Below, in pieces: positions 21,527-32,352 of a stretch of 64,000 bases of DNA (the first letter of the stretch is position 1; each line of letters begins with the position of its first letter). A program made the translations under genes and the position numbers. The notes beneath the pieces are model-generated. The model was not told where the DNA came from and ran no database searches. It saw only the letters and a program-made list of their open reading frames with translations. Origin of the DNA: Escherichia coli (GTDB lineage Bacteria > Pseudomonadota > Gammaproteobacteria > Enterobacterales > Enterobacteriaceae); NCBI RefSeq assembly GCF_003334305.1, contig NZ_QOWS01000012.1. One strand, written 5' to 3'.

Positions 21527-22107
21527 TGTCTACGCTTCTTTATTTACACGGTTTCAACAGCTCGCCGCGCTCTGCAAAAGCGAGCTTGTTAAAAAACTGG
21601 CTGGCGGAACATCACCCTGACGTTGAGATGATCATTCCGCAGTTGCCGCCGTATCCTTCCGACGCGGCAGAGCTGCTGGAATCCATTGTCCTGGAACATG
21701 GCGGCGATTCGCTGGGTATTGTCGGTTCGTCACTGGGGGGATATTACGCCACCTGGTTGTCACAATGTTTTATGCTGCCCGCAGTGGTGGTAAACCCGGC
21801 GGTGCGCCCGTTTGAACTGCTGACGGACTATCTCGGTCAGAACGAGAACCCCTACACCGGGCAGCAATATGTGCTAGAGTCACGCCATATTTACGATCTC
21901 AAAGTCATGCAGATTGACCCGCTGGAAGCGCCGGATTTGATCTGGCTGCTGCAACAGACGGGAGATGAAGTGCTGGATTACCGCCAGGCGGTGGCGTACT
22001 ACGCTTCCTGCCGCCAGACTGTCATAGAAGGCGGCAACCACGCATTCACGGGCTTCGAAGATTATTTCAACCCGATCGTCGATTTTCTTGGTCTGCACCA
22101 TCTCTGA
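21526..22107 (+). CDS. yqiA: Esterase YqiA (alpha/beta hydrolase)
   Basis: 193 aa ORF starting at the cpdA stop (overlap); GSSLGG nucleophile elbow. Confidence 0.9.
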
Positions 22108-22132: not shown

Positions 22133-24028
<1,896 letters not shown>

Positions 24029-24072: not shown

Positions 24073-24942
24073 TTATTTTATTGGGCACAGTTTGTTACGA
24101 TCTGGAAATAGTGTTGCCAGCGAACCAGCCAGAGTTTTCCAGTCCGTAGCCATTTTTTCTGCTTGTGCAGTTGTTATTACTGCACCTTGTTGTTTAATAA
24201 GCTCATCCTCCACTCTGGTATAGTGAATAATGGTAAAATCCGTAGAGGACCATTTATCCTTAGAGAACATCTTCGTCATCGCATGAATGTTTGCTTGCCC
24301 GTCATCGATAAAAACAATCGCGTCATATTTGTTCCCCATTTTATCCAGCATATAATCGAGAATTACGCCTTTATCTTGCCCGGAAGAAAAAAATACCCCC
24401 TGGCTGTACAGCCATGACCGTTTGAGTTTCCCTTTTTCAAAGGGTGGCAAAGTATCCTCTTTCTTCCTGAGTGCGGAAGACGAAAAATCAATGCCGTTTC
24501 GCTTTAATTCCCGCAATGTCGGAAAGAGAGTATCCGGTGCACGGGATGTCAGAGCAAAAGCGGTATGCTTTTGTTGCCACTGTTTTAACATTGTCGGTAA
24601 CTGTGGCTCGGTAAGCTGCATAGGGCTAAGTTCGTAAAGCATACTGATTGTATTTTCATACAGGCAGGGAACTTTTTGCGAGTCATCCGGCTTTAAGGGC
24701 AATTTATCGGTTTACCATTGATACCAGATATCACCGCCAATGCGTGTGCCACTCGTTAATAACGTATTATCAATGTCAAAAACCAATAATATCTTATCGG
24801 ATGGATAGAGAGTTTCCTTTTCGGTGATAATTTTACTGACCGCACTATATTCGCCAGTAACTATATTTTTTACCTGTGCGTAAGATAAAGCTGGCAGAGC
24901 AGAGAGTATCATCCAGAGAATGATTTTAAATTTATTATTCAT
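24073..24942 (-). pseudogene. Secreted HAD-superfamily phosphatase interrupted by one in-frame TAA (24712-24714)
   Basis: ORF 24712-24942 carries signal peptide plus HAD motif I DIDNT; ORF 24073-24702 continues in the same frame with motif IV FIDDGQ; the two are separated only by the stop. Confidence 0.65.
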
Positions 24943-24955
24943 TTTTTATTCCAGA

Positions 24956-25690
24956 TTAGAAAGTATAAGTCAGACCCCAGCGCCAGCGGATTTGGCGATT
25001 ACTTGATGTTTTATCCACACCTTTATAATCCGCAATACTCATATAGGGTATCCACGATCCCATTTTGTACCCTACTTTAAATGATGCGGTATAGTTTTTA
25101 TGGCCATCATTCCAGGTTAAATAACCATTATTGTAATAGACCAGGTTTAACTGATATTGGAAGTTGGTTTTTTGTGGTCGATAGTCGATCCACACATCGT
25201 AACGGCGGTTATTACGATCATCGTTGCCATAACCTTTGGATTTATCGGTAGCTTTATCCATGTCATAACGAAAACGACCCGAAACTTTCCATTCTTTGCT
25301 GAAATCATAACCCGCAGAAAGACCATATTCGTAAGTTGACCAATATTGCGTGGTATCAAGCCAGAACATGGGTTCTAACCAGAATTTTTTGTCATCCAGC
25401 GGCTTAAAGCGGTAAACAACAGATAATCCTGTTCCGTTATTGCCAAATTGTGAGGGGTCCCACTTATCTTTATCACCTTCATCGGTGTTATAGCGTAATT
25501 CTCCCATCAAACCGATACCATTACTAAAAAATGTACCAAATTCAACGCGGTCCGCGTGGGTGCGAGTATCATCAAGATACTCATGACGATAATCAATAAA
25601 TCCATGCGGCTGTTCTGCACAGACTAGTGTAGGTGACAGGCAGGATAACATTGTTATTCCTGCAAGTGATATTTTAAGATAAGAATTCAT
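24956..25690 (-). CDS. KdgM/NanC-family small outer membrane porin (tentative)
   Basis: 244 aa; signal peptide; alternating aromatic/hydrophilic beta-strand pattern; C-terminal ...WGLTYTF. Confidence 0.6.
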   Translation of the reverse strand: MNSYLKISLAGITMLSCLSPTLVCAEQPHGFIDYRHEYLDDTRTHADRVEFGTFFSNGIGLMGELRYNTDEGDKDKWDPSQFGNNGTGLSVVYRFKPLDDKKFWLEPMFWLDTTQYWSTYEYGLSAGYDFSKEWKVSGRFRYDMDKATDKSKGYGNDDRNNRRYDVWIDYRPQKTNFQYQLNLVYYNNGYLTWNDGHKNYTASFKVGYKMGSWIPYMSIADYKGVDKTSSNRQIRWRWGLTYTF

Positions 25691-25785
25691 AATATTCCCT
25701 TTCAGAATAAAATATATTTTTGGTGATCGAATACACCATCTGATGATTCCAGGTATTAGAATGTTTTTTTATCTATAGTTTGACT

Positions 25786-26910
25786 TTAAATTTTAAGTTT
25801 GTTTTCCTTATCAATGAATAGATAAAATTTCGTCTGTTGATGGGGCTGGAAATTATTATCAGATACAAATATTAACGATGTATGCCCATCAATCAGAGGA
25901 CCGAAGGTTACCCCTTCAATACAATCCGCAGAGGAAGTGTAATCAGCAAAATCAATTAATAATTTTTTACTGACGGGTTGTAACGTGGATTTATTGGACC
26001 AATCTTGCAGACTGTCAATATCCTTGATATCGCTGGCAGCAGTTAAATCGACCATATAAACTCTGACAGAGTAATCCCAGTCATTGAACCCAGCACTGAC
26101 GTTTCTGCCGGAACGTTCGATGACCAACAATTGGTGATCATTCAGCGCCAGGACCTCGGATACGCCATTATCATTAATACCGAACTTACTCACTTGCGGA
26201 ACAGGATCAGTAATATAGAGATATTCATGCAATTGCTTTGAAGGTCGACCGTCTGCATCTATAGAAAATTGCAGTAAGCGTGATGTACCTGAATTTATTG
26301 GACTTGCAATAGGCCCATCCTGTTTAAGGCTGCTTTCAACGGCGATAAAAAGTGATTTTCCATCTGGTGTAACTGTCAGGCCCTCCCAGGCGTTGCCGCT
26401 GCGAATACCATTGCTGCTCTCTTTGTCAGAACTAATATTAAATCGAGCAGGAAATAAAGACGTAAAATCTTTCTCCATTACGCCATCGAGAGTGCTCAGA
26501 CGCAGTGGAGCACCTAACTCCGAACTCCATAGTAATGACTTACCATTGTGTGTCAGGGCCAGACCTTCGGCATCCACCGTATTGGTCACGAAAGGCTGCT
26601 GTTTTGCATCAAGCAGTGGACGCTGGTTGAGAAAATTCACTTGCTCAATGCCCCTGGATGATACCTGTATTTTTAGTGTATAAAGACTGGCATCTCCTTC
26701 TTTATTATTGTTTCTGCTATCGTTAATAGCATAGAAAATATTTTTTTTTGCATCAAATGTGATGGCTGATAGCCCCGCGATTGTAACATTGTTCTGTTTT
26801 TCTCCCGTCCGGAAGTTGAACTCACCAGCATAATGAAGAAAACTGTTTGCCTGCGCTGTTGTGCATAACAGCGGTAATGCCAGAAAAATAGCGGCATGTC
26901 TTATTTTCAT
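25786..26910 (-). CDS. Secreted protein, probably beta-propeller; phytase-like/esterase family assignment tentative
   Basis: 374 aa; signal peptide MKIRHAAIFLALPLLCTTAQA; repeated EGL..T.DGKSL-type segments. Confidence 0.55.
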   Translation of the reverse strand: MKIRHAAIFLALPLLCTTAQANSFLHYAGEFNFRTGEKQNNVTIAGLSAITFDAKKNIFYAINDSRNNNKEGDASLYTLKIQVSSRGIEQVNFLNQRPLLDAKQQPFVTNTVDAEGLALTHNGKSLLWSSELGAPLRLSTLDGVMEKDFTSLFPARFNISSDKESSNGIRSGNAWEGLTVTPDGKSLFIAVESSLKQDGPIASPINSGTSRLLQFSIDADGRPSKQLHEYLYITDPVPQVSKFGINDNGVSEVLALNDHQLLVIERSGRNVSAGFNDWDYSVRVYMVDLTAASDIKDIDSLQDWSNKSTLQPVSKKLLIDFADYTSSADCIEGVTFGPLIDGHTSLIFVSDNNFQPHQQTKFYLFIDKENKLKI

Positions 26911-26939
26911 GATATTTACCTTTGTGTATGTATCTGATT

Positions 26940-27854
26940 TTAGTCGTGTTGTGAAAGAAAAAGATTAACTTCCGATGGTGTCGCCAGATGACCTCTGGCA
27001 CCTAATGCAGTAATATTTATTGCTGCAGTGGCAGAAGCAAATTTTAGTGCTTCAATTAAGGGCATGTTTTTTATTAAGCTATAAACAAATGCACCATTAA
27101 AAGTATCTCCAGCGCCAGTGGTATCAATAATGGGAATTGTATAGCTACCTATTTTTACTTGCTCATTGCCTTTGACTGCAATTACTCCCCTAACATCCAG
27201 CGTAACCACGACAGCCTCAAGTTGATACTCGTCTTGTATATCATGCAGAAGTGTAAAATCTGGCTCTGCTGCATAGCCACGAATAAAACCGTCATAATTA
27301 AATATCGCAATATCAGCAAGGTGTAAAATTCTGGCAAGGTGTTCAGGTGTTGCAATGATATGAGGCTCAATATCAACGACAACTTTTGTCATCTGGCTAC
27401 GGGAATATTCGGCCAGCATACGAAATTTCTCGATATCTGCTGGCATCGTATAATAATAACGGCTTTGCGCAATTGCCTGCAGGGCTTTTTCTTTATCCCA
27501 CTCATGATCACTACCAGGCGAGTAAACCAACGTTTTTTCACCTAATTCATCAATAAAGATAATCGCGGTATTGGCAATCAATTCCGGAATTACCTGAACG
27601 AAATCACAATTTACATGATATTTTTTAAATCCATCAAGAATGATCGAGGCTGAATGATCATTGCCCACACATGAAACAGATACCACATTGAGACCCAGTT
27701 GTCCCATCGCACAGGCACTGTTGGCGACTGTGCCGCCAGCTTGTTCACCCAGACGTGTCCCGACCACTTTACCGCCACGAGTGGGGAGTGACGGGATAGA
27801 TAAAAAAATATCTATATTTCCACTGCCTAAAGCGGCGACATCAAATTTCTTCAT
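26940..27854 (-). CDS. PfkB-family carbohydrate kinase
   Basis: Starts MKKFDVAALGSGNIDIF at ATG 27854 with gggaga SD; C-terminal PfkB signature DTTGAGDTFNGAF. Confidence 0.8.
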   Translation of the reverse strand: MKKFDVAALGSGNIDIFLSIPSLPTRGGKVVGTRLGEQAGGTVANSACAMGQLGLNVVSVSCVGNDHSASIILDGFKKYHVNCDFVQVIPELIANTAIIFIDELGEKTLVYSPGSDHEWDKEKALQAIAQSRYYYTMPADIEKFRMLAEYSRSQMTKVVVDIEPHIIATPEHLARILHLADIAIFNYDGFIRGYAAEPDFTLLHDIQDEYQLEAVVVTLDVRGVIAVKGNEQVKIGSYTIPIIDTTGAGDTFNGAFVYSLIKNMPLIEALKFASATAAINITALGARGHLATPSEVNLFLSQHD

Positions 27855-27858
27855 AGTC

Positions 27859-28857
27859 TTATTTCTCCCTATGGCTAACGCGTTGCCCGCCTGCGTCGAC
27901 ATAATCACAACTTAAATGCCAGCACATTTCATATAACCACTGCATGACCAGAAATAAATTGTTGGACTCACTGGCATCAGGTATAAAACTGATTAATTCT
28001 GCTGTCGCTCCCTGTTCAACAATTGCTTTTTGGGTTGCAATGTAAAATGGGTACTCGCGGGATGTAGCTGGCAGTAAAAAATAATGCTGACCGACACCAG
28101 CCTGATGTAAGCGTAATGAATGATAAAATTCTTCCAGTGGAAAGGCTGTCGCACGAATCTGTGGGCCGCAAGAAAGTAAATTGCTCCCCGATATTGCTAG
28201 TCCCCAACTTAAGCCACTCCCCAGAAACGTTATCTCTTTTTGTTGGTAAAAATGGCGCTTCTTTTGCTGCCAGTGCTGATTAATCTGGCTAAATTTCCCT
28301 TCTAAATCCTCTTCAATTTGCAGTGGTGTTAAGCCTGGACATAAGTTTTGCGCTAAGCGCAGGAGGGTATAAAGTGTGACGCTACTACTTTGCGTTGGAA
28401 TACCCTGCTTATTCGCCCATGTATAGAGCATGTTTTCTGTTATTGCGCAAAATGGTGTTCCAGGGCAATTCGTCACACCCAGCACTTGCGCGTTTGAGCA
28501 TACTGCGTGGCTAAGGGCGTCAACGGTCAGTGATGGTCTGCCACTTGCGCTGAGAATAATGATCAACGTTTCTTTCTGATAACGGGTTAAATCAGTCTGA
28601 AGAAAATCCCACGTTTGCAATGCGGAACAAAACAGATGTGTGTATTTCCCCAGCCAGGCGGCGGCACATAGTGCCACCGTCCAGGAGTCGCCCGATCCCA
28701 CTATACAGACGCGTTCAACAGCACGTTTATCGAGCTGAACAGATGAAAAACATTCACCCCAGATAGCTGCCAAATGGCGTAGCGCTGCCGCCGTTGCATT
28801 TATTTCCTCACGAGTTTGCGCTAATGGCATAACAGGAGCACGGGCTGGCATGTTCAT
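27859..28857 (-). CDS. Double SIS-domain sugar-phosphate isomerase/deglycase-like protein (FrlB/AgaS-like)
   Basis: 332 aa; two SIS-like halves (VGSGDS..., ILSASG...; FLGSGLSWG...); start ATG overlaps upstream stop (TAATG); 4 nt before kinase start. Confidence 0.7.
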   Translation of the reverse strand: MNMPARAPVMPLAQTREEINATAAALRHLAAIWGECFSSVQLDKRAVERVCIVGSGDSWTVALCAAAWLGKYTHLFCSALQTWDFLQTDLTRYQKETLIIILSASGRPSLTVDALSHAVCSNAQVLGVTNCPGTPFCAITENMLYTWANKQGIPTQSSSVTLYTLLRLAQNLCPGLTPLQIEEDLEGKFSQINQHWQQKKRHFYQQKEITFLGSGLSWGLAISGSNLLSCGPQIRATAFPLEEFYHSLRLHQAGVGQHYFLLPATSREYPFYIATQKAIVEQGATAELISFIPDASESNNLFLVMQWLYEMCWHLSCDYVDAGGQRVSHREK

Positions 28858-29933
28858 TATTTCTCCTGTGCCTGTACTGCAAGCAATGTCAGACCCGATG
28901 CGATCGCTTCAACATCGAAATCTTTATTATTTACGGCGCGGAAAAAGGCATATTTATCTTCAGGGAGCGCATCAAAACCGCGCCATGCCCCTGCAATTGC
29001 GCCTGCCATCGTAGCGATGCTATCGGTGTCATTGCCAATATTGGCGCAGGCATGGATGGTTTCCCAGGGTTCTCCTTTGCAGTACAGCAATAGACCGATT
29101 GCCGCAGGAATGGATTCATGGGCGGCAACAGAGTTACCAACCAAACCTTCCATTTCTCGCAGACAAGACTCCAGATCATTGGCACGTCTGGCGATGTCCG
29201 CTGCAAGTTGGATGCGCATGGCGATAGATGGCCCTGCTACACATCGTGCATATTGTTTGGCCAGGCGTTCGCCGTAATTCGCTCCCCAGATTGCGGCATC
29301 CAGTAATGATGTGAGCGAGGCTTCTGGTAACATAGCCTGCGATGTCGCTGCAGCGATGGCGCAAGCGCTGGCAATCGCAATATTGGTGTCATGTGAAGGT
29401 AGGCAAGTTATTAACGCCAGGCGACACGCTTTTTCTTTCTTGCCAGGCCAGATCAATCCTGCCGGGGCTACACGCATTCCTGCGCCATTCGTGGTGCCGA
29501 CATTGGGGGCCTGACGAGAAGATGTTCCAATACGCCCAATGGTGTTTGTTGGTCTACCTTCTTTTAGTGCCTTGACGATTTGTTCTGTTGTGGGGCCTTT
29601 ATAATTTGCGTAGGGCTGCATATCGGCCCAACGCAGAAGACAAGCTAACCAGTCATTATTGGTGAAGTTATCAAATCCAGCCTCAATTAACCCTTCTGAA
29701 AACACATACATTTGGCTGGAATCGTCGGTGATAAGTCCTGCAACACCATTTAATGAGCCAGCAAAGGTATCGGCAGGAGGAGAAACAAAGGCATTTAAAA
29801 AACCTCCCCATTGAGTTTTTATTTCATCAATGCTGTAGAGTTCAGTCGCTGCGCCTAATGCATCGCCCATACCTGCGCAGGCTAAAGAACCTAATATTTT
29901 GTTATAAATTACGGCTTGTTCTATTTTGTTCAC
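28857..29933 (-). CDS. ADP-ribosylglycohydrolase-family protein
   Basis: 358 aa; N-terminal GSLACAGMGDALGAATE and C-terminal IGNDTDSIATMAGAIAGA typical of the family. Confidence 0.7.
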   Translation of the reverse strand: MNKIEQAVIYNKILGSLACAGMGDALGAATELYSIDEIKTQWGGFLNAFVSPPADTFAGSLNGVAGLITDDSSQMYVFSEGLIEAGFDNFTNNDWLACLLRWADMQPYANYKGPTTEQIVKALKEGRPTNTIGRIGTSSRQAPNVGTTNGAGMRVAPAGLIWPGKKEKACRLALITCLPSHDTNIAIASACAIAAATSQAMLPEASLTSLLDAAIWGANYGERLAKQYARCVAGPSIAMRIQLAADIARRANDLESCLREMEGLVGNSVAAHESIPAAIGLLLYCKGEPWETIHACANIGNDTDSIATMAGAIAGAWRGFDALPEDKYAFFRAVNNKDFDVEAIASGLTLLAVQAQEK

Positions 29934-29946
29934 AATATTCTCTCTG

Positions 29947-30699
29947 TTACACGCTAAAACTGTCTTTTGTAATTCGTGCTTTGTAGGAGTACCGACTTGC
30001 GGGATAAACCATCTCTACATACTCCATTGGTTTACGTTCCACGGATAACGTGACGCGGGTACAACTTAATACGACGTCATCGGCAGTCAGTTCCAGTAAT
30101 TGACGCTCAAGGGGCGAGGGAAGCCGGGCAGAGATAATCTCCGTTGCTTCTAAAGGTTTAATAGCGAGTTTTTCTTCCAGTAAAATATAGAGCGAACCCG
30201 TCGCCAGCAGCTCTTCCAGAGTTATTTCTTGTCCGTCATTTAACGCAAGCCATGATGTCTGAATACCCAGCGGCGTACTTCCCATATAGCGAATGCGTTT
30301 TATACAGAAAACGGTATGGACATGGATATCAAGTTCGAGATTTTTTCTGATAATATCACTGAGAGGAATATAACCTATTTCAAGAATATTCTGTGCCGGT
30401 ACGCCACCACGAGCCTTAATGTCATCAGTAAAACTATGTAATAAATGATTTTCCCGACTGCGAGCCGGTAATGTAAATGTTCCTTGCCCGTGGACACTAT
30501 GCAGGTATCCGCGTTGTTTCAAACTTTCTATTGCTTTCCGAATTGTTGTTCTGCTGCTTAAAAAATGTTCAGCCAGTTCTCTTTCTGTTGGTATAGCTTT
30601 GCCTTCTTTCCATTCACCGTTATCAATTTTTTTCTTTATTTCATCAAAAATTTCACGATGCTTTAGCTGACCTTTACTGGCTTTATAAATTCTTATCAT
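29947..30699 (-). CDS. GntR/HutC-family transcriptional regulator
   Basis: 250 aa; N-terminal winged-HTH (PTERELAEHFLSSRTTIRKAIESL) and UTRA-like C-terminal domain; first gene of the minus-strand operon. Confidence 0.8.
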   Translation of the reverse strand: MIRIYKASKGQLKHREIFDEIKKKIDNGEWKEGKAIPTERELAEHFLSSRTTIRKAIESLKQRGYLHSVHGQGTFTLPARSRENHLLHSFTDDIKARGGVPAQNILEIGYIPLSDIIRKNLELDIHVHTVFCIKRIRYMGSTPLGIQTSWLALNDGQEITLEELLATGSLYILLEEKLAIKPLEATEIISARLPSPLERQLLELTADDVVLSCTRVTLSVERKPMEYVEMVYPASRYSYKARITKDSFSV

Positions 30700-30717
30700 G
30701 ACAAAGCCTCATTTCAA

Positions 30718-30729
30718 GTGGTTGATACC
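30718..30729. promoter_or_regulatory. Candidate HutC-type operator TGGTTGATACCA upstream of the GntR gene
   Basis: TGGT-N4-ACCA palindrome about 20 bp upstream of the regulator start codon. Confidence 0.35.
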
Positions 30730-30881
30730 AACTTTACATTCTTTTATTTTTATTGCGCAGTATGCTTATTTGTTATCTGTGACATAAAACAGGAAAAACC
30801 ACATTTATTAATAAATATCATGCGGTTAAGTGAAATTGGTTTTTATGTGATGCTGCTCAATATTAACTCAGTGGTTTGTTG

Positions 30882-30893
30882 TGGTATCTACCA
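30882..30893. promoter_or_regulatory. Candidate HutC-type operator TGGTATCTACCA upstream of the symporter gene
   Basis: Second TGGT-N4-ACCA palindrome about 95 bp upstream of the transporter start. Confidence 0.35.
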
Positions 30894-30985
30894 ATGCATT
30901 TATTCTCAATCGTAAAGTTATGTGCTGAATGAGTTCCGATACATTTGTTTTTAATATAATTTCATGTGATTAATGAGTGCTGTGT

Positions 30986-32317
30986 ATGAAACTGACAATA
31001 AATGAAAAGATAGGTTTTGGTGCCGGTGATATGGCCATTGCGATAGTAATGATGTCTTTAGCCATGATCATCACTTATTTTTACACGGATGTATTTGGTC
31101 TGAAACCCGTCGACTTAGGTATTCTGTTATTTTCTGTACGTATTCTTGATGCTGTGATTGATCCAGTTGTGGGAACAATGACAGACATAACGAATACACG
31201 TTGGGGAAAATATCGGCCATGGTTGCTTTTTATGTCAATACCGTTTGGGATAAGCATTTGGTTGATGTTCACCACACCTGATACCGATTATTCAGTTAAG
31301 CTTTTATGGGCCTGGGCTACCTATGTGTTACTTACCTTGACCTATACGTTAATCGCTATTCCTTATGTTTCATTAATCAGCGTTATCACGGATGATCCAC
31401 AAGAGAGATTGAGCGCCAATGGTTATCGTTTTGTTATGACAAAAATTGCCATGTTCGCCGTAACAATTATTGTTCCTTTATCTGCAATGTATCTTGGGAA
31501 GAATAACGTACAACTGGGTTATCAAATAGCAATGGGGACAATGGGTATTCTGGCAACGTGTTTATGCCTGTATTGTTTTTTTAGCGTGAGAGAGCGCATC
31601 TACCATCCAAAACCCAGTCTCGGTATGGCCGCGCAGTTTCGGTTACTGATCAAAAATGATCAATGGCTCATTTTGGGCGCTGTAATTGCGATCATTATGT
31701 TTGGCGGGATTATTCGTAACTCTGTCGCTGCATATTATGCAAAATATTACCTGAGTGGTGGGGATGCTTTAATTTCACCGTTTTTAACTTCAGGCGTGAT
31801 CGCCTCAGTTCTGGCTATGATCGCTTGCACCTGGCTTACTCGTCTCTATGACAAAATAAAAATATTTCGTTATACCCAATTACTGGCGTTCGTGGTGGGT
31901 GGTGCGATGTATTTCGTGCAACCAAATTCTATAGTGCTAGCTTTTACATTTTATATTGTGGTGACTTTCCTGACGGATATCCAGCTTCCCATTTATTGGG
32001 CATCCATTGCTGAGTCCGTGGATTACGGTGAAATGAAAACGGGGCAACGTGTTTCTGGCCTGGCATTTGGCGGGATTCTCTTTTTCCAAAAGTTCGGTAT
32101 GGGGCTGGCAGGGGGCTTTATCGGAATCGCTTTAGCCTATCTGGATTATCAACCAGGCGTAGAACAAACACCACAGGCGCTGTGGGGGATCTGCCTGTTA
32201 ATGACGATCATTCCCGCGATACTTAACCTGCTTACCGGACTCATCATGAGATTTTATCTGATTAATAATGAATATTACGAACAGATAAAAGCACGGTTAC
32301 AAACGGCGGAAGAGTGA
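30986..32317 (+). CDS. GPH-family (MelB/UidB-like) glycoside:cation symporter
   Basis: ~443 aa, ~12 hydrophobic helices; divergent from the GntR operon; GTG at 30977 is an alternative start. Confidence 0.75.
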   Translation: MKLTINEKIGFGAGDMAIAIVMMSLAMIITYFYTDVFGLKPVDLGILLFSVRILDAVIDPVVGTMTDITNTRWGKYRPWLLFMSIPFGISIWLMFTTPDTDYSVKLLWAWATYVLLTLTYTLIAIPYVSLISVITDDPQERLSANGYRFVMTKIAMFAVTIIVPLSAMYLGKNNVQLGYQIAMGTMGILATCLCLYCFFSVRERIYHPKPSLGMAAQFRLLIKNDQWLILGAVIAIIMFGGIIRNSVAAYYAKYYLSGGDALISPFLTSGVIASVLAMIACTWLTRLYDKIKIFRYTQLLAFVVGGAMYFVQPNSIVLAFTFYIVVTFLTDIQLPIYWASIAESVDYGEMKTGQRVSGLAFGGILFFQKFGMGLAGGFIGIALAYLDYQPGVEQTPQALWGICLLMTIIPAILNLLTGLIMRFYLINNEYYEQIKARLQTAEE

Positions 32318-32325
32318 AAATAAAT

Positions 32326-32352
32326 GGCCGGCAAGCAGCACCGGCCTCTTTT
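32326..32352. terminator. Terminator hairpin between convergent symporter gene and ygiN
   Basis: ggccgg-caagcagca-ccggcc followed by tctttt. Confidence 0.6.

Follow-up and report, generated by a model that had tools for sequence, protein, structure and literature searches.

Between parE and ygiN, some Escherichia coli chromosomes carry an accessory island in which a gene for a GntR/HutC-family regulator stands back to back with a gene for a cation symporter of the GPH family. The question raised by this locus is how the two divergent transcription directions are controlled, and for which nutrient. We analyzed a 64,000-nucleotide stretch of such a chromosome (contig NZ_QOWS01000012.1; the whole stretch is called the window below) and found two 12-bp palindromes of the form TGGT-N4-ACCA, O1 and O2, in the spacer between the two genes. 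We consider it highly probable that these palindromes are operators of the adjacent HutC-family repressor over two divergent promoters, which may in addition depend on cyclic AMP (cAMP) and CRP. Binding, repression, promoter positions, the role of CRP and the nature of the inducer are all what we infer from comparing sequences.

Two palindromes in the divergent spacer

The features on which the analysis centers are the following, with gene starts as annotated by the Prokaryotic Genome Annotation Pipeline (PGAP).

29947-30699, minus strand: GntR/HutC-family regulator gene, 250 aa, the first gene of a minus-strand gene row
30700-30985: intergenic region, 286 bp
30719-30730 (extended 18-mer 30716-30733), unstranded: predicted proximal operator O1, TGGTTGATACCA
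30882-30893 (extended 18-mer 30879-30896), unstranded: predicted distal operator O2, TGGTATCTACCA
30986-32317, plus strand: GPH-family (MFS_2) cation symporter gene, 443 aa; start from PGAP and the conserved MKL(T/S)I N-terminus

O1 ends 19 nt before the ATG of the regulator gene (minus strand, A at 30699), and O2 lies 92 nt 5' of the conserved ATG of the transporter gene at 30986. The program that listed open reading frames (ORFs) had placed the transporter start at GTG 30977; PGAP and the orthologues instead start at ATG-AAA-CT. An earlier note, made from the sequence alone, had described two 12-bp palindromes of the same design in a 285-bp intergenic region, one about 20 bp upstream of the regulator start and the other upstream of the transporter. 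This arrangement holds, with two corrections: site 1 is at 30719-30730 rather than 30718-30729, and with the true ATG at 30986 the region is 286 bp long.

A motif search, which the same note had suggested, bore out the pattern. TGGT-N4-ACCA occurred five times in the window versus 0.75 ± 0.83 expected, and none of 100 shuffles reached five. O1 and O2 were the only intergenic matches; the other three (3143, 22089, and 62244) lay inside long ORFs and are probably chance matches. The copy at 22089 is at the 3' end of yqiA, just before parE. The background expectation for 286 bp is ~0.003 copies, and the chance of finding two together, by arithmetic from the shuffle-based rate, is ~6e-6.

Of 5426 complete E. 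coli genomes, 408 (~7.5%) carry the 286-bp spacer, in every case on the chromosome, as alleles of ~100%, 95%, and 89% identity. Both palindromes were kept in all three alleles. In E. coli, one half of each site reads GTGGT and the other TTGGT; site 2 of the 89% allele, TGGTATCAACCA, exactly matches the reverse complement of site 1.

The palindromes accompany the regulator in orthologous loci

We compared 12 independent loci with genomic context from Enterobacter, Providencia, Leclercia, Kosakonia, Trabulsiella, Vibrio europaeus, and metagenomes, most of which were obtained by exact-protein look-up. A contig scan with the regulator alignment yielded only four true orthologues and one Streptomyces paralogue, and the latter was ignored. 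The regulator orthologues form a graded series from 85% down to 47% identity, and the 12 loci span 85–50%. The palindrome was present in all 12 loci. Their 164 kb contained 30 exact TGGT-N4-ACCA matches, 25 of which were located in the few promoter regions of the regulon. Nine loci had an exact pair in the divergent spacer of the regulator, with spacings of 163–166 or 177–179 bp. The distance between the two sites was 163 bp in the window, 162–166 bp in one clade, and 177–179 bp in another, while spacer length ranged from 263 to 454 bp.

The motif tracks promoters through gene rearrangement. In Leclercia (L015), where the regulator is detached from the enzymes, the regulator has a site 26 bp upstream of it, and the hydrolase/transporter spacer contains two. 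Vibrio and locus L016 have an ABC system as transporter; there, one site precedes the regulator-ABC-hydrolase operon and another is in the KdgM/Tsx spacer. In a spacer alignment (A3) with a mean identity of 51%, the invariant columns were the two palindromes and two CRP-like blocks.

The sites share the extended consensus aaTTGGT-N4-ACCAAtt. A position weight matrix (PWM) built solely from the non-E. coli orthologous sites ranked O2 first in the 64-kb window (20.4 bits) and O1 second (18.4 bits), followed by a match of 14.4 bits. The best score among the three copies inside ORFs was 14.4 bits, at 62241-62258. Scanning the island with this matrix, for example before the porin gene, revealed no additional operator above 8.7 bits. 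The central four bases of the sites varied by clade (ATCA/AGAT; GTAC/GTAG; ACGT/TCGG), as expected if operator and regulator co-evolve.

The regulator fits the site

The regulator contains a winged helix-turn-helix domain (Pfam GntR PF00392, residues 15–75, 2.9e-17) and an effector domain of chorismate-lyase fold (Pfam UTRA PF07702, residues 97–237, 7.5e-23), a combination that places it in the HutC subfamily, as the earlier note had assumed. NCBIfam matches to HutC, PhnF, and TreR were all under the equivalog cut-offs. The closest solved structures were DasR (2e-25) and NagR (7e-20). The structure of NagR on DNA shows Arg38 and Arg48 reading G-5 and G-4, with a further contact from the wing residue Gly69 to G-7 (PMC4333415). 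These residues align with Arg40, Arg50, and Gly71 of the island regulator (phmmer alignment to 2wv0/4u0v), which are kept in 27, 26, and 22 of 27 aligned family members, respectively. According to the DasR paper, only regulators having both arginines should demand two consecutive guanines (PMC4918961); consistent with this prediction, both arginines are kept and TGGT carries two consecutive guanines. The GTGGT/TTGGT asymmetry of the E. coli sites resembles the one-sided G-7 of native NagR sites.

The spacing of the sites also agrees with the family. GT and AC are 4 nt apart in HutC sites and 3 nt apart in those of the FadR subfamily (PMC4494728), and the HutC geometry, which the earlier note had named as typical, is found twice in the spacer and in the 12 orthologous loci. 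DasR sites in the supplement of PMC4494728 include AGTGGTGTAGACCAAT, the same 12-mer as the sites of Kosakonia and locus L017 (TGGTGTAGACCA).

In the effector domain, the NagR phosphate ligands Thr90, Arg133, Arg135, and Ser165-Ile166-Tyr167 correspond to Thr91, Arg135, Arg137, and Ser169-Leu170-Tyr171. Of the latter residues, Arg135, Arg137, and Ser169-Leu170-Tyr171 are invariant in the 27 aligned family members. Four residues of the sugar pocket differ from NagR: Gln147 for Glu145, Val228 for Ala224, Met230 for Ser226, and Cys213 for Ile209. Since the phosphate ligands are kept and the sugar pocket is changed, the effector is probably phosphorylated, and other than glucosamine-6-phosphate or N-acetylglucosamine-6-phosphate.

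A variant of the DNA-reading residues was seen within E. coli. The cluster representative P0001 (90% identity) differs from the window regulator at one position, R50G, which hits the equivalent of the guanine-reading Arg48 of NagR. Some E. coli isolate may thus carry an operator-blind, constitutive allele.

Predicted promoters and CRP-like boxes

A simple sigma-70 consensus scan of the spacer gave two weak, badly placed candidates only, no more than in shuffled sequences. The promoters were therefore taken from conserved hexamers aligned on the palindromes and are predictions. They and the CRP-like boxes, scored against TGTGA-N6-TCACA, are as follows.

30731-30759, minus strand: predicted core promoter of the regulator operon; -10 TAAAGT (30731-30736), -35 TGCGCA (30754-30759), transcription start site near 30724
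30879-30906, plus strand: predicted transporter promoter; -35 TTGTGG (30879-30884), 16-nt spacer, -10 TATTCT (30901-30906), transcription start site near 30913
30846-30861, unstranded: CRP-like box A, TGTGATGCTGCTCAAT, 8/10 matching positions
30778-30793, unstranded: CRP-like box B, TGTGACATAAAACAGG, 7/10 matching positions

In most loci a TAnnnT hexamer abuts the proximal palindrome (TAAAGT, TAGAGT, TAAGGT, TAACAT, CAATAT), and in most orthologues another stands 8–10 nt past the distal palindrome (TATGCT, TATTGT, TATGGT, TAATCT, TAGCTT, TAGGTT). The distance to the transporter start codon varies from ~55 to 180 nt. With these hexamers, O1 would lie at about -6 to +6 of the predicted regulator-operon promoter, and O2 between the -35 and -10 elements (about -31 to -20) of the predicted transporter promoter.

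The CRP-like boxes keep fixed distances from the palindromes. The center of box A is 34 bp from that of O2, and the corresponding distance was 33–34 bp in 12/12 loci; the T..GA......TCA columns of box A are invariant in alignment A3. Box B, a conserved block in the same alignment, is centered 61 bp from O1, and 61–62 bp from the proximal palindrome in 11/12 spacers, the exception being the rearranged Leclercia spacer with a CRP-like box 60 bp from the palindrome. Across the aligned spacers the blocks match TGTGA-N6-TCACA at 7–9 of 10 positions. Relative to the predicted starts, box B would be at about -61.5 of the regulator promoter and box A at about -60 of the transporter promoter, so that O1 and O2 would occupy classical repressor positions on class I CRP promoters. 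The rigid coupling of each site to a CRP-like box makes it probable that catabolite control is added to the switch. A class II reading with box A at -41.5 was rejected, as the -10 element would land on GGTATC inside O2. A search of 30600-31100 against Rfam, with E-values up to 1, gave no riboswitch or leader RNA match.

Further elements were noticed in the spacer. A perfect TATAAT without a good -35 is located at 30955-30960, 26 nt upstream of the transporter ATG, and could serve as an additional, operator-distal promoter; loci L005 and L009 have TATA-like boxes in a comparable position. An extra (A/T)TGGT half-site at 30872-30875, 10 bp upstream of O2, is also present in strain E166 and in loci L014 and L007, and a further TGGT half-site is at 30837-30840. 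The conserved TGGT-containing blocks ATTGGTTTTT and GGAAAAACCACA (30835-30844 and 30792-30803) flank the outer sides of the CRP-like boxes. These extra blocks could be auxiliary half-sites as described by Suvorova et al., or UP-like elements.

The proposed switch and its alternatives

In the proposed switch, one regulator dimer would bind each operator, Arg40 and Arg50 of the recognition helix would read the GG of each TGGT half-site, and Gly71 of the wing would reach the minor groove, as in NagR/DasR on dre sites. O1 would be centered on the predicted start of the regulator gene row and O2 would lie between the predicted -35 and -10 of the divergent GPH transporter gene, and at either position the repressor would block access of RNA polymerase. 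Since the regulator gene leads the minus-strand row, site 1 would make it autoregulated, as the earlier note had proposed, and the repressor would limit its own synthesis along with that of the enzymes. With a CRP-like box ~60 bp upstream of each predicted start, as in class I promoters, full expression would need both cAMP-CRP and the inducer. The inducer is probably a phosphorylated pathway intermediate (e.g. the product of the PfkB kinase encoded in the island), because the phosphate-clamp residues of NagR are conserved.

Several points weigh against this reading. The promoter hexamers are weak and were missed by the consensus scan, and TATAAT at 30955-30960 is the better box and could be the real transporter promoter, in which case O2 would be at about -80. 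Under the chosen -10, box A of E. coli is at about -59.5 and not at the canonical -61.5, and box B matches at just 7/10 positions. The central four bases of O1 and O2 (TGAT and ATCT) are unlike those of characterized dre sites (CTAG and ATAG), and Gly71 is replaced by Lys in 5 of the 27 orthologues. The orthologous sites were gathered by the exact pattern, which makes the core of the PWM partly circular. Nothing specific to the island or to its combination of genes came up in searches of the literature.

The nearly constant distance between the sites, despite variable spacer length, would also fit a cooperative unit in which dimers at O1 and O2 interact, loop the 163-bp spacer and shut both promoters together, perhaps aided by the extra half-sites at 30872-30875 and 30837-30840; Suvorova et al. 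take a constant distance as a sign of cooperative pairs (PMC4494728). However, 163–166 bp corresponds to ~15.5 helical turns versus ~17 for 177–179 bp. The phase is thus not conserved, and looping with a conserved helical phase was rejected. The intervening CRP and promoter modules are conserved and account for the constant distance, the operons of Vibrio and L016 have single sites, and HutC repressors with solved structures are dimers (PMC4333415). We regard cooperative looping as unlikely, although it deserves more weight than the other rivals. That the regulator acts as an activator or dual regulator, recruiting RNA polymerase from the sites, appears very improbable. Some HutC members, such as NagR of B. 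thuringiensis, do activate certain genes (PMC6141813), and O2 would be an upstream site, at about -80, if the TATAAT box were the real transporter promoter; but O1 directly adjoins a conserved -10-like hexamer and overlaps the predicted start, the distance of O2 is fixed to the conserved TAnnnT hexamer and not to the start codon, and DasR, NagR, and GgaR repress catabolic genes and are released by effectors (PMC4333415, PMC4918961, PMC10819704).

The palindromes might instead be bound by another chromosomal regulator, for example PdhR of the FadR subfamily or a HutC paralogue, their proximity to the regulator gene being coincidental. Several GntR-family motifs do share TGGT/ACCA cores, but the 4-nt spacing is typical of HutC and not of FadR (PMC4494728). 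Moreover, the motif accompanies the regulator orthologues across Enterobacterales and Vibrio, in mobile islands and differing chromosomal contexts, and the site center changes by clade together with the regulator. The nearest functional analogue in K-12, GgaR/YegW, is 25% identical, and its target spacer is without such a palindrome. We give a foreign regulator slightly less credence still than an activator. Chance, or a purely structural role without regulation, is scarcely credible: coding sequences also contain 12-mers of the same design, with three such copies in the window, but the joint probability for the spacer is ~6e-6, and the sites are invariant in spacers otherwise 51% identical and present in 12/12 loci. 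Repression from two operators by the adjacent HutC-family regulator thus remains the reading that we prefer.

The island and its variation

The window is a piece of E. coli chromosome in which parE ends at 24028 and ygiN, mdaB, ygiZ, qseCB, and parC follow from 32361 on; the 8.2-kb accessory island fills the parE-ygiN interval. Gene names are taken from the PGAP annotation of the identical island in strain M8 and from the Pfam labels of orthologues. In addition to the regulator and transporter genes, the features of the island are as follows.

28857-29933, minus strand: ADP-ribosylglycohydrolase-family gene
27859-28857, minus strand: SIS-domain gene
26940-27854, minus strand: PfkB kinase gene
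25786-26910, minus strand: exported phytase-like esterase gene
24956-25690, minus strand: KdgM-family porin gene
24073-24942, minus strand: DUF2608 gene, with a nonsense codon in the window strain
32326-32346, listed for the minus strand: GC-rich hairpin, then UCUUUUC, 3' of the transporter stop

The intergenic gaps along the minus-strand row are 13, 0, 4, 29, 95, and 13 nt, and the genes at 24073-29933 are probably co-transcribed with the regulator. The transporter gene is apparently monocistronic. The hairpin behind it (plus-strand fold of -13.9 kcal/mol, z = -2.5) is terminator-like and would be shared with the convergent ygiN. The DUF2608 gene has an in-frame stop at codon 77 (…WYQW*TDK…) in the window strain and is intact (289 aa) in strain M8 and in orthologous loci.

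The island varies among its carriers. Strain E166 (L002 10526-17718), which belongs to the 89–94% allele lineage, has a second island between the transporter gene and ygiN that encodes a TonB-dependent siderophore receptor, a FecCD-type ABC system, and an RpiR regulator, indicating that the parE-ygiN gap is a recurrent integration spot. In strain Z142-3 (L019), three copies of IS1 degrade the island: the segment from regulator to esterase is gone, the porin is truncated and the transporter frameshifted, which suggests that the island is dispensable in some lineages. The orthologous cluster of Providencia (L014) is flanked by a Tn3-family transposase and resolvase and by an IS91-family transposase, and an IS110 element is located between Tsx and the regulator in L016. 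The cluster thus seems to travel on mobile elements.

Transporter, enzymes, and the likely substrate

The transporter scored 346.2 bits against TIGR00792 (gph; cut-off 231.35) over residues 11–442 of the 446-aa ORF and matched Pfam MFS_2 at 2.6e-97. It is a genuine GPH member, and the earlier note's family assignment was right. It fell under the cut-offs of all named GPH models: YagG (359.8 vs 610), PRK11462 (288.7 vs 836), glucuronide transporter/UidB (211.8 vs 528), and MelB (196 vs 456).

The core of the orthologous loci consists of the regulator, hydrolase, SIS, PfkB, phytase-like esterase, and KdgM porin genes, except for L006 with the regulator, transporter, and Tsx only. Added to this core are genes for Tsx, adenosine deaminase, purine nucleoside phosphorylase, or a UshA-like 5'-nucleotidase. 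In L011 and L016, the GPH carrier is replaced by a Bmp-type (nucleoside) ABC importer, and the substrate of the transporter is therefore probably not a classical GPH one. Together with the nucleoside-handling accessory genes, this replacement suggests a nucleoside-like glycoside. The glycoside, pentoside or hexuronide that the earlier note had deduced from GPH membership is narrowed accordingly.

The DUF2608 protein is exported (signal peptide) and carries a DIDNT motif (DxDxT, HAD-like), and across the loci its gene and that of the UshA-like 5'-nucleotidase are almost mutually exclusive. The nearest characterized solved relative of the hydrolase is ARH3, and the hydrolase is 31% identical to YegU of K-12. 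A search of the PDB gave no match for the phytase-like esterase and only weak GlmS-type matches for the SIS protein. The accessory genes, the alternation of DUF2608 with the 5'-nucleotidase and the relation to ARH3 suggest a nucleoside-linked glycoside that is generated from a phosphorylated precursor in the periplasm. The nutrient handled by the genes under the switch is thus probably nucleoside-like. A nucleoside-linked substrate in general is well supported; the specific compound is conjecture.

One conjecture is that the switch controls a so far undescribed catabolic route for an O-ribosylated adenosine, e.g. 2'-O-ribosyladenosine, derived from poly(ADP-ribose), ADP-ribose adducts, or cyclic ADP-ribose isomers made by TIR proteins. 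We think it unlikely that this compound is the right one, although ribosyl-adenosine from (poly/cyclic) ADP-ribose would fit every gene. The anion-selective KdgM-type porin would let in a phosphorylated precursor, from which the phytase-like esterase and a periplasmic phosphatase (DUF2608, elsewhere the UshA-like 5'-nucleotidase) would remove the phosphates. The GPH carrier or the Bmp-type ABC system would take up the disaccharide nucleoside, and the ARH3-like hydrolase would split its ribose-ribose bond. The PfkB and SIS enzymes would then channel the sugar to central metabolism, adenosine deaminase and purine nucleoside phosphorylase would process the adenosine, and the repressor would sense a phosphorylated intermediate.

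Significance

The regulatory logic proposed here is a textbook one: a HutC repressor encoded next to its targets would act on two operators that cover divergent promoters, probably with CRP as co-regulator. The analysis defines the operator motif precisely (aaTTGGT-N4-ACCAAtt) and delimits the regulon of an uncharacterized accessory island that occurs in ~7.5% of complete E. coli genomes as well as in Vibrio and several further Enterobacterales. A reporter to screen for inducer and substrate could be built directly from the regulator and these operators, and identifying the two compounds would illuminate poorly understood bacterial clusters of ADP-ribosylglycohydrolase-family and PfkB genes, such as yegTUV.

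Comparison with known systems

The closest parallels are DasR of Streptomyces and NagR/YvoA of Bacillus, with which the island regulator shares the GntR/HutC architecture, the guanine-reading Arg/Arg pair, the wing Gly, and the phosphate-binding pocket residues. Their dre operators are ~16-bp palindromes with the same TGGT-N4-ACCA core as O1 and O2; core and A/T flanks match the island sites, whereas the E. coli centers are TGAT and ATCT instead of CTAG/ATAG. DasR and NagR are autoregulated repressors of a catabolic set of transporter and enzymes, as the island regulator is predicted to be. However, the regulator is not orthologous to either, all NCBIfam equivalog scores being under cut-off, and its regulon, unlike those of DasR and NagR, is free of nag and chitin genes, with no nag gene found in any of the loci. 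The island also differs by its added CRP-like boxes, which are a proteobacterial feature.

Within E. coli, the nearest counterpart is GgaR (YegW). According to the main text of its description, GgaR is a HutC-family single-target repressor of yegTUV with two binding sites near the promoter and ADP-glucose as the reported effector (PMC10819704). Like the island, yegTUV combines a HutC repressor with a nucleoside-type transporter, an ADP-ribosylglycohydrolase-family protein, and a PfkB kinase. In contrast to the island, yegW is downstream and convergent, and SIS, esterase, and porin genes are absent; the regulators are 25% identical and the kinases 22%. The idea that GgaR/YegW uses the same operator was rejected, as the fbaB/yegT spacer is without TGGT-N4-ACCA and regulator identity is only 25%. 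In K-12 this spacer (L018 2749-2785) contains three direct GGTATT repeats (AAGGTATTTAAAAGGTATTATTAAGTGGTATTG) just upstream of yegT, and these may be GgaR/YegW sites of the NagQ-like direct-repeat type; a search of the main text of the GgaR paper (PMC10819704) showed no palindrome, consensus or footprint.

Suvorova, Korostelev and Gelfand (2015) described FadR/HutC divergons with two operon-specific sites (PMC4494728). As in the island, these divergons include the regulator gene and have two palindromic sites, each near its own operon. Because the constant inter-site distance here stems from the central CRP/promoter module, the island fits neither of their classes cleanly. The transporter shares its full-length match to the family model and MFS_2 with the GPH members MelB, UidB, YicJ, and YagG. 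Taken together, these comparisons suggest that the locus would work like DasR/NagR on dre and GgaR on yegTUV, while being orthologous to neither.

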